From Minisyncoccota bacterium (GTDB lineage: Bacteria > Patescibacteriota > Minisyncoccia > Phycocordibacterales > PALSA-1337): a stretch of 63,323 bases of DNA. The stretch spans positions 7,227 to 70,549 of the forward strand of contig JAGOQK010000004.1 of NCBI GenBank assembly GCA_017991475.1, read 5' to 3'. The position numbers were made by a program, and so were the translations under genes. Positions 15,898 through 16,341 of this stretch are shown piece after piece. The notes below the pieces were generated by a model, which worked only from the letters and a program-made list of their open reading frames with translations, had not been told where the DNA came from and did no database searches. Positions within the stretch are counted from its first letter, which is position 1. Each line of letters begins with the position of its first letter.

Positions 15898-16002
15898 CAA
15901 ACCGAGGGCTCGCAGGTTTGTGCGAGCCGCAGGCCTGACGAGGCCGAGGCGGGGTCGCGAGATTTTCTAGCAAGAAAATACTCGTGACCACAAAGAAAAT
16001 GC

Positions 16003-16088
16003 AAAAATTAAAATTCAAAAGGCAAAAGTTCGTCCTGGATTCCATAGAGAATCTGTAACGGAATTTTGCCTTTTGAATTTTAAATTTT
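16003..16088. repeat. Heptad-periodic AT-rich inverted repeat between tRNA-Lys and tRNA-Leu
   Basis: aaaattcaaaaggcaaaa ... ttttgccttttgaatttt. Confidence 0.8.
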
Positions 16089-16098
16089 AAATTAACTT

Positions 16099-16182
16099 GC
16101 CGGGGTGGTGAAATTGGTAGACACATCAGCCTTAGGAGCTGAGGCCAGCAATGGTATGGAGGTTCGAGTCCTCTCCCCGGCA
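16099..16182 (+). tRNA. tRNA-Leu(TAG)
   Basis: GCCGGGG/CCCCGGC stem, CTTAGGA loop, variable arm; CCA not encoded. Confidence 0.96.
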
Positions 16183-16341
16183 CAAACGAACGAAGTGAGT
16201 TTTGTGTTGGGAGCAAAGTGCCTGCGCACTTTGTGAGAGAGGACTCGAAAAGGCTGAATGTATTTTCGAGGAGCTTTGCTCCGAGAAAATATGAAGCCTC
16301 TACTGTTCCCGTAGGGAAAGAGTCCTCTCCCCGGCACAAAC
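16166..16341 (+). repeat. tRNA-Leu 3'-end duplication flanking a structured trailer
   Basis: 22-bp gagtcctctccccggcacaaac at 16166..16187 and 16320..16341; antisense T-arm copy at 16237..16249. Confidence 0.92.

Follow-up and report, generated by a model that had tools for sequence, protein, structure and literature searches.

A 63,323-nt stretch of the genome of a Minisyncoccota bacterium (Patescibacteria, order Phycocordibacterales; contig JAGOQK010000004.1, positions 7,227 to 70,549), hereafter called the window, carries a short structured unit directly behind its transfer RNA (tRNA) gene for leucine, tRNA-Leu(UAG). The Leu unit is a discrete 154-nt insertion or deletion bounded by a 22-nt repeat of the tRNA 3' end. 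Related units were found behind other tRNA genes of the same genome and of its relatives, with antisense segments matched to each host gene, and on balance we regard them as probable protein-less DNA insertion cassettes that target the T-loop-to-3'-end segment of tRNA and transfer-messenger RNA (tmRNA) genes in this Patescibacteria order. Literature searches found no description of the unit family, which is apparently undescribed so far. The window genome (G000), which comes from a wastewater metagenome assembly, comprises 771 kb in 17 contigs with 48% G + C. The tRNA genes were called with ARAGORN and the Rfam tRNA model, and they are single-copy genes in these tiny genomes.

The host gene tRNA-Leu(UAG) lies at 16099–16183 of the window on the plus strand, as do all parts of its unit; it was called by ARAGORN, scored 57.4 bits with the Rfam tRNA model, and has an intact cloverleaf. 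Two antisense parts of the unit, termed guide 1 and guide 2, both pair with a segment designated AB (16163–16187), which is composed of the T-loop, the 3' strand of the T-stem, the 3' strand of the acceptor stem, and four trailer bases. The loop between AB and guide 1 (16188–16200) contains a C-GNA-G minihairpin (ACGAAGT, 16190–16196). Guide 1 (tttgtgttggg, 16201–16211) is antisense to the acceptor 3' strand and the trailer, forming 11 bp, two of them G:U, with cccggcacaaa of the tRNA 3' end and trailer. It is followed by the P2 hairpin (caaagtgc-CTGC-gcactttg, 16214–16233), the third arm of a three-way junction, which has a conserved base (GCAA/TTGC) and a covarying top. Guide 2 (GAGAGGACTCGAA, 16237–16249) is antisense at 13 of 13 positions to the T-loop and the T-stem 3' strand at 16163–16175. 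The long P4 hairpin (16251–16299) has an apical stem, ggagc-ttt-gctcc, at 16270–16282 and two tandem G.A motifs, one reading UGAA/UGAA in the Leu unit and UGAG/CGAA in most copies, the other CGAG/CGAG. The P5 hairpin (ttccc-GTA-gggaa, 16306–16318) ends in a GNA triloop closed by C:G. The unit finishes with a 22-nt exact direct copy of the tRNA 3' end plus AAAC (16320–16341); if the unit was inserted, this copy would be the displaced original 3' end, with the original flank behind it. The upstream copy of this repeat, 16166–16187, lies inside AB at a spacing of 154, and tRNA-Leu stays intact. A first-pass annotation of this DNA had listed guide 1, P2, GAGAGGACTCGAA, the ggagc stem, and a 22-bp copy at a distance of 154, and each of these parts was located where it had been described. 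No open reading frame fits inside the 154-nt unit. A 171-aa antisense open frame (15836–16351, minus strand) spans both the tRNA-Lys and tRNA-Leu genes and the unit, but it is almost certainly no gene.

An empty site for the Leu unit was obtained from a close relative. The Joint Genome Institute (JGI) contig Ga0558718_03937, which was reached via a protein adjoining the locus, carries tRNA-Lys and tRNA-Leu genes that are 100% identical to those of the window, with flanks that are roughly 90% identical. This contig is without exactly 154 nt between the repeats after tRNA-Leu, which corresponds to 16188–16341 of the window on the plus strand in the empty-site alignment, with borders that can be slid within the 22-nt repeat. 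It is also without a 92-nt block, 15900–15991, after tRNA-Lys. In addition, tRNA-Leu(UAG) is unit-free in five congeners.

A second host in the window, tRNA-Trp(CCA) (267–340, minus strand; ARAGORN), is followed by a tandem array with a period of 162. The first complete unit is 162 nt long (105–266, minus strand), with guide 2 at 195–207 and the 3'-end copy at 105–127. The second unit (1–104, minus strand) is 99–100% identical to the first and is cut by the window start; at least two units are present before a 100-N assembly gap (contig C13:7127–7226), which directly precedes window position 1. Over window positions 1–266, the parts follow one another as in the Leu unit and the stems covary between both, in agreement with what the first-pass annotation had proposed. 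Unit matches in relatives were frequent at contig ends, suggesting that units break assemblies. The relative that lacks the Leu unit has a single orthologous unit at its tRNA-Trp. This unit nearly equals that of the window in P4 and P5, has two compensatory pair changes in P2, and has an unrelated loop ahead of guide 1. Its downstream copy is interrupted by a 25-nt mini-module, and there is no mini-module in the window's Trp unit. The upstream, functional tail of the relative's tRNA-Trp ends in CTA, and the displaced copy retains CCA-CGCAC as in the window. These alignments show that units are gained or lost, and remodelled, within a short time.

To describe the family within the genome, all 39 tRNAs were scanned for inverted copies of their own T-arm and direct copies of their own 3' end downstream. 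In eight cases (Glu-CUC, Ile-GAU, Arg-GCG, Trp, Leu-UAG, Glu-UUC, Val-GAC, and Leu-GAG), 10–13 nt of the tRNA's own T-arm recurred in inverted form at +52 to +68, and in seven of these eight the tRNA's own 3' end was also repeated in direct orientation at +132 to +163. Neither type of copy occurred at those positions behind the other 31 tRNAs, and tRNA-Tyr and tRNA-Ser were confirmed to have no unit. These own-T-arm and 3'-end copies are far above chance. When the whole genome was searched with an nhmmer profile of the core, every match adjoined a tRNA. When aligned, the eight units share AAGCAA...TTGC, TCGAAAAGGYTGAG, and CGAARCCTRTACYG, then a 5-bp hairpin with a GTA loop.

A covariance model was built from the units and run on 41 related genomes and on 201 genomes across the class. 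Units were detected in 31 of the 41 related genomes, representing 12 of the 17 genera of the order, at 1–15 copies per genome. The class-wide sample yielded units in only 10 of the 201 genomes, four of them from the same order. Among 110 units, 80 begin no more than 46 nt from a same-strand tRNA, and these tRNAs cover approximately 20 anticodon types; several apparent orphans sit behind the 3' end of a tmRNA gene. The units measure approximately 130–165 nt, and the boundary repeat comprises 17–24 nt of the tRNA tail. At the gathering score, Rfam 15 returned only tRNA, and 16184–16341 had no match even at E ≤ 10. Exact scans of two conserved core patterns against viral contigs and of a flank pattern against JGI metagenomes gave no match.

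The units behind apparent tmRNA genes were seen at L057, L074, L083, and L091 (relatives G016, G011, G014, and G035, respectively); the 3' ends of these genes have the form ...GGTTCGAxTCCCxxCATCTCCAC, and guide 1 of the units reads TTGTGGAGATG. The window genome's own tmRNA (C14:148814–149179) has no unit. At G014:C54 (L037 2050–2122), a unit stands behind an ARAGORN tRNA with the anticodon CUA, which was labeled 'Pyl' and is a possible amber suppressor. A 17-mer equal to the tRNA-Cys tail occurs within the rpsO coding sequence (G000 C12:60754–60770) and was taken as coincidence.

The match between guides and host tRNAs was quantified in the 80 units directly behind a tRNA. The median run of guide 2 complementary to the T-arm was 12 nt for the unit's own host and 6 nt for other tRNAs, and 3% of the non-host comparisons reached the host median. 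For guide 1 against the acceptor 3' strand and trailer, the corresponding medians were 7 and 5 nt, with 13% of the non-host comparisons reaching the host median; the run was 10–13 nt in approximately one quarter of the units, with 3–5 trailer bases included. The claim that the family is customised for each tRNA, with antisense segments that track host identity, therefore held across these 80 units as well as genome-wide and order-wide. The pairing of guide 1 takes in the genomic trailer instead of CCA, which indicates that its partner is the gene or the precursor rather than the mature tRNA. Opposite a 3'-strand T that belongs to a G:U pair of the tRNA, the guide has the Watson–Crick A and never G, which shows that the guides complement the 3' strand itself and do not copy the 5' strands of the tRNA.

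The conserved fold was supported by covariation. RNAalifold on eight units predicted 30 pairs, 21 of which had compensatory changes. In an alignment of 110 units, 95.4% of the cells were paired compared to 67% after shuffling, and both-side changes occurred in 831 cells compared to 217 ± 13, a number reached in none of 500 shuffles; slid controls dropped to 33–53% paired. All nine pairs of P2 (helix 1) were changed on both sides somewhere, with 95.8% paired, and P5 (helix 5) was 98.3% paired with both-side changes at five of five pairs. The earlier claim of covarying stems thus survived in a larger alignment. When the sense strand was folded from the T-loop onward, AB, guide 1, guide 2, and P2 formed a three-way junction (z = −7.3), after which P4 and P5 come. 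Readings of the core motifs as hammerhead, group II domain V, H/ACA-like, or T-box-like structures were rejected as misfits by eye, and Rfam was silent.

Which of the two tail copies takes part in this fold could be judged from the guides. In 78 of the 80 units, guide 2 matches the upstream tRNA more closely than it matches the downstream copy. For guide 1, the upstream copy fits better in 38 units, the two are equal in 26, and the downstream copy fits better in 16. In 18 of the 80 units, the downstream copy has a decayed acceptor part or none at all, and in four cases the copy is split by mini-modules of 25–50 nt right after GAxxCC of the T-arm copy. The better upstream fit, the decayed downstream copies, and the three-way-junction fold together indicate that the functional fold uses the tRNA's own tail, and the downstream copy looks like a displaced leftover. 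The mini-modules consist of a short hairpin (e.g., AATG-AGCA-CATT or GATTC-ARMA-GAATC) followed by CCYACTSGG; they were seen at G000 C12:7506–7530, C15:20335–20362, and C16:12459–12510 and at L119 8147–8171, and also in some P4 tips (L083 and L102).

Comparison of the cores gave a picture of their turnover. Within the genus, core identity was 0.643 for the same tRNA in different genomes, only slightly above the 0.617 for different tRNAs (p = 0.018); for different tRNAs of one genome it was 0.620. The cores are therefore not bound to a type of tRNA. The nearest neighbor of a core sat at another tRNA in another genome in 59 of 78 cases. Two genomes with an identical tRNA-Leu(GAG) have units that are only 80% alike and differ in loop type, and different core types alternate behind one tRNA (L028). 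Together with the identical tandem copies, this resembles the behavior of mobile elements.

Large serine recombinases are numerous in these genomes, and the genomic islands that carry them are a second, independent user of these sites. The islands go in at the very 3' end of a tRNA or of a unit copy, and no tRNA repeat results. For example, an 18.4-kb metal-resistance island in G011 (C3:58410–76820; L032, also L016) lies between tRNA-His and its unit. The large serine recombinase of this island (Resolvase, Recombinase, and Zn ribbon) abuts the 3' end of tRNA-His, and the island encodes two P-type metal ATPases and DUF305, DsbD-like, and thioredoxin/DsbA-like proteins. Homologous recombinases are found at tRNA-His in G006, G019, and G040, where there is no unit and no tRNA repeat within the 20 kb fetched (9.6 kb in G006). 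In G014:C51, an island likewise lies between the tRNA and the unit. In G018:C3 8158–9846 (L036) and G014:C54 (L037 7233–9068), the serine-recombinase gene abuts the downstream copy of the unit and not the tRNA, and therefore the copy can serve as an attachment point. The recombinase frames at these two loci extend antisense through the whole unit into the tRNA; as the copied tRNA tail has no stop codon, this read-through is probably a chance extension.

If the units are insertion cassettes, each would bring a spare tRNA tail (AB), often with a terminator-like hairpin, and the original tail would be pushed downstream, where it could decay or be interrupted by further insertions. Guides 1 and 2 would pair with AB and, together with P2, form the three-way junction, followed by P4 and P5. 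The fold would most likely act as single-stranded DNA of the sense strand, like the integron attachment site attC or the CTX phage attP, and may offer a base-paired replica of its target to an enzyme of recombination or repair whose gene lies elsewhere. Such a replica would explain the host-matched antisense parts. A more far-reaching version, which we consider doubtful, is a programmable cassette. Its antisense and sense arms would recognize any tRNA or tmRNA 3' end through base pairing, whether as RNA or as folded single-stranded DNA, and direct insertion and excision by a host enzyme (e.g., the single Xer-type recombinase or some function of repair or replication), and they would be re-templated from the new target on moving. 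If true, nucleic-acid-guided site-specific insertion of this kind would be unknown among described elements.

Several observations weigh against an insertion cassette. No enzyme acting on the units was found among the tyrosine and large serine recombinases. The first-pass annotation had raised a co-occurring integrase, and this was not borne out. A large serine recombinase was rejected as the partner since it does not co-vary with the units: 10 unit-bearing genomes are without the gene, and 7 of 10 unit-free genomes have it. A dedicated tyrosine integrase was rejected as well, because there is essentially one Xer-like tyrosine recombinase (PF00589) per genome, of housekeeping type, whether units are present or not; a second tyrosine recombinase is absent in most of the genomes examined. 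The empty site equally fits insertion or precise deletion mediated by the repeats. The best core identity between non-tandem copies is 88%, and recent jumps between different tRNAs were not seen; at this identity, nothing but tandem duplication and gain or loss at a single site is clearly recent, and homologous recombination between repeats could explain either. Metagenome contigs aligned to two loci contained no clean skip or circle joints. The other points of this kind come from the comparison of DNA with RNA, where the evidence is mixed. In minimum-free-energy helices, G:U outnumbers A:C by 101 to 26, which is RNA-compatible although such folds favor G:U; the mismatches of guide 1 are likewise RNA-compatible (11 U:G and 3 A:C), and tandem G.A motifs, two of which are present in P4, are also typical of RNA.

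The main rival, which we hold to be possible but unlikely, takes the unit as a cis-acting structured RNA in the tRNA 3' trailer, co-transcribed with the tRNA. Its guides would bind either the 3' half of the precursor or the downstream copy, giving a tRNA-like or minihelix-like end. Its role would lie in 3' processing, stability, or quality control, or it would be a stable small RNA freed by RNase P and RNase Z. Besides the G:U excess and the G.A motifs, the strong covariation on the tRNA-sense strand agrees with such an RNA, as does the position of the unit, which is always directly 3' of the tRNA on a constant strand. The RNA minimum-free-energy fold of tRNA plus unit is also very stable (z = −7.8); the tRNA body is closed by the downstream copy, and the unit resembles a large insert in the T-loop. 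However, a terminator-like hairpin stands between the tRNA and guide 1, ahead of the core, in 23 of the 80 units, which hints at DNA. The G:U pairs are not favored in the model-aligned helices (54 G:U and 50 A:C in 3125 cells, compared to 36 and 3 in the host tRNAs' own stems), and this also hints at DNA. The C-GNA-G motif is an exceptionally stable DNA minihairpin. It is strand-specific in the units (100 sense and 12 antisense), a further hint at DNA, and its density is 6.8 per kb compared to 1.06 per kb in the genome. Moreover, the unit is dispensable, since the close relative has identical tRNAs without it and 10 of the 41 relatives have none. Identical tandem copies and stacks of mixed core types are hard to reconcile with a processing role, and the paired guides would be in competition with the cloverleaf of an essential tRNA that is encoded by a single gene. 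There is also no Rfam family for such an RNA.

Two further explanations account for the repeats in terms of islands or of the host. The unit could be a passive scar between attL and attR, left by the decay or deletion of larger tRNA-integrating islands that carried an integrase or serine recombinase, as in cis-mobilizable elements (CIME-like), with a functionless core. T-loop-to-3'-end direct repeats are the classic footprint of tRNA integration (Islander, PMC4383910; Ms6, PMC1762012), and serine-recombinase islands do strike tRNA 3' ends in these genomes (G011 tRNA-His, G018:C3, and G014:C54). We nevertheless find a scar quite improbable. A core of approximately 130 nt with the same five helices and with compensatory changes over 110 copies from 12 genera is unlike decay, and the antisense guides are without a counterpart in island ends. 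The examined islands also have no tRNA-tail repeat at the far end, and a homologous island occurs in the unit-free G040. No longer element with two ends matching the unit was seen, and no conserved gene lies within or beside any unit; no Y1/HUH gene was seen adjoining one either, although neither PF01797 nor the genes of REP-associated tyrosine transposases (RAYT; REP, repetitive extragenic palindrome) were searched for. Alternatively, the unit may be a DNA element kept by the host, either as a spare landing pad or buffer that shields a single-copy tRNA gene from islands or read-through, or as a structural insulator or terminator. The tiny genomes with single-copy tRNA genes would suit this role, and at G018:C3 and G014:C54 the recombinase gene abuts the downstream copy. 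Against it, the islands in G011 and G014:C51 entered between the tRNA and the unit, the distribution of units is uneven even within a genus, and a landing pad gives no reason for P2, P4, P5, or the antisense guides; we therefore give such a host-kept element very little credence. The insertion cassette remains the reading that we prefer, and the unit family was filed with the tRNA-targeting insertion elements.

Attachment sites that run from the T-loop to the 3' end of tRNA or tmRNA genes have been described for phage Ms6 in the tRNA-Ala T-loop (PMC1762012), for the islands of the Islander catalogue (PMC4383910), and for tycheposons (10.1101/2020.12.28.424599). The units resemble these tRNA-integrating elements in their T-loop-to-3'-end direct repeat, the regenerated tRNA, stacking, the tmRNA target, and the presence of empty and filled sites. 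Unlike them, a unit comprises only approximately 130–165 nt without an integrase or any other gene, and it has two antisense copies of the target split by a hairpin and a covarying core of several hairpins. The approximately 20 tRNA targets, with a single housekeeping-type tyrosine recombinase per genome, are a further difference.

In integron attC and in the attP of CTX phage and other Xer-exploiting elements, the recombination site is set by the fold of one strand and not by sequence, and the recombinase is encoded outside the mobile unit. The units share with these sites pairing that is kept as the sequence varies, tandem arrays, and a re-created target. Their covarying fold and strand-specific minihairpins would also suit an imperfect inverted repeat that folds on one strand, be it DNA or RNA; folding as single-stranded DNA is inferred here. 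They differ from integron cassettes in having no cargo gene and a boundary repeat of 17–24 nt of tRNA instead of GTT. No R''/R' boxes (RYYYAAC/GTTRRRY) were found at unit ends in alignments inspected by eye, and no IntI gene was seen.

Elements of the insertion sequence (IS) group IS200/IS605, such as IS608, and of the REP/RAYT type use a short internal guide that pairs DNA to DNA with the cleavage or target site; these guides are 4 nt long and act in the TnpA active site, and the elements produce no target duplication. The units are likewise small, hairpin-rich, and strand-specific with an internal complement of the target, but in them 20–25 nt form a stable helix. A complement of the tRNA 3' end is also known from the primer-binding sites of long terminal repeat (LTR) retroelements, and programmable guide loops from IS110 bridge RNAs. 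In contrast to both, the partner of the unit guides is the trailer encoded in the genome instead of CCA, so that the mature tRNA is not what they pair with, the architecture differs, and no reverse transcriptase or DEDD recombinase gene is attached. A miniature inverted-repeat transposable element (MITE) or DDE insertion sequence was rejected, because the 17–24-nt duplication is the tRNA tail, no terminal inverted repeats are common to the copies, and non-tandem copies are no more than 88% alike.

If the units are mobile, they would be the smallest known elements targeting tRNA genes and the only ones with a base-paired target replica instead of a recombinase gene, and they would suggest that the strongly reduced genomes of Patescibacteria have an insertion mechanism that has gone unrecognised. 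If they are RNAs instead, a large class of structured RNAs linked to tRNAs would be new. In the window genome, one in five tRNA genes has a unit, and relatives have units at up to 15 loci per genome. The units are also of practical concern, as assemblies break at them (as with the gap at the end of the Trp array), and they create false att-like scars and mimic island borders. The question is now testable, since co-culture with the host and transformation are feasible for some Saccharibacteria and other Patescibacteria.

The window also contains a folded module of a different family behind tRNA-Lys(CUU) (15825–15898, plus strand; ARAGORN and Rfam). This 92-nt module (15900–15991, plus strand), the block absent from the close relative, had been described as partly related to the Leu and Trp units. 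It is indeed a tRNA-end module with a fold-back arm, but the homology did not hold: with filters off, the unit covariance model gave a best score of 2 bits, which indicates a different type of module and not a partial Leu or Trp unit. The module is strongly folded (z = −6.8). Its fold-back pairs 15885–15903, the tRNA 3' end and trailer, with an inverted copy at 15915–15933, and a small hairpin comes next. The last hairpin, gtcgcgag-attttct-agca-agaaaat-actcgtgac (GGGGTCGCGAGATTTTCT-AGCA-AGAAAATACTCGTGACCA, 15960–15991), was found in 15 of the 41 relatives at up to three copies per genome, often near tRNAs, and looks like a second module family. The rest of the spacer between tRNA-Lys and tRNA-Leu (15993–16098) is a 106-nt A + T-rich near-palindrome with 50-nt arms that are 78% complementary. 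Unlike both flanking modules, this near-palindrome is kept in the close relative (L115 2241–2347).

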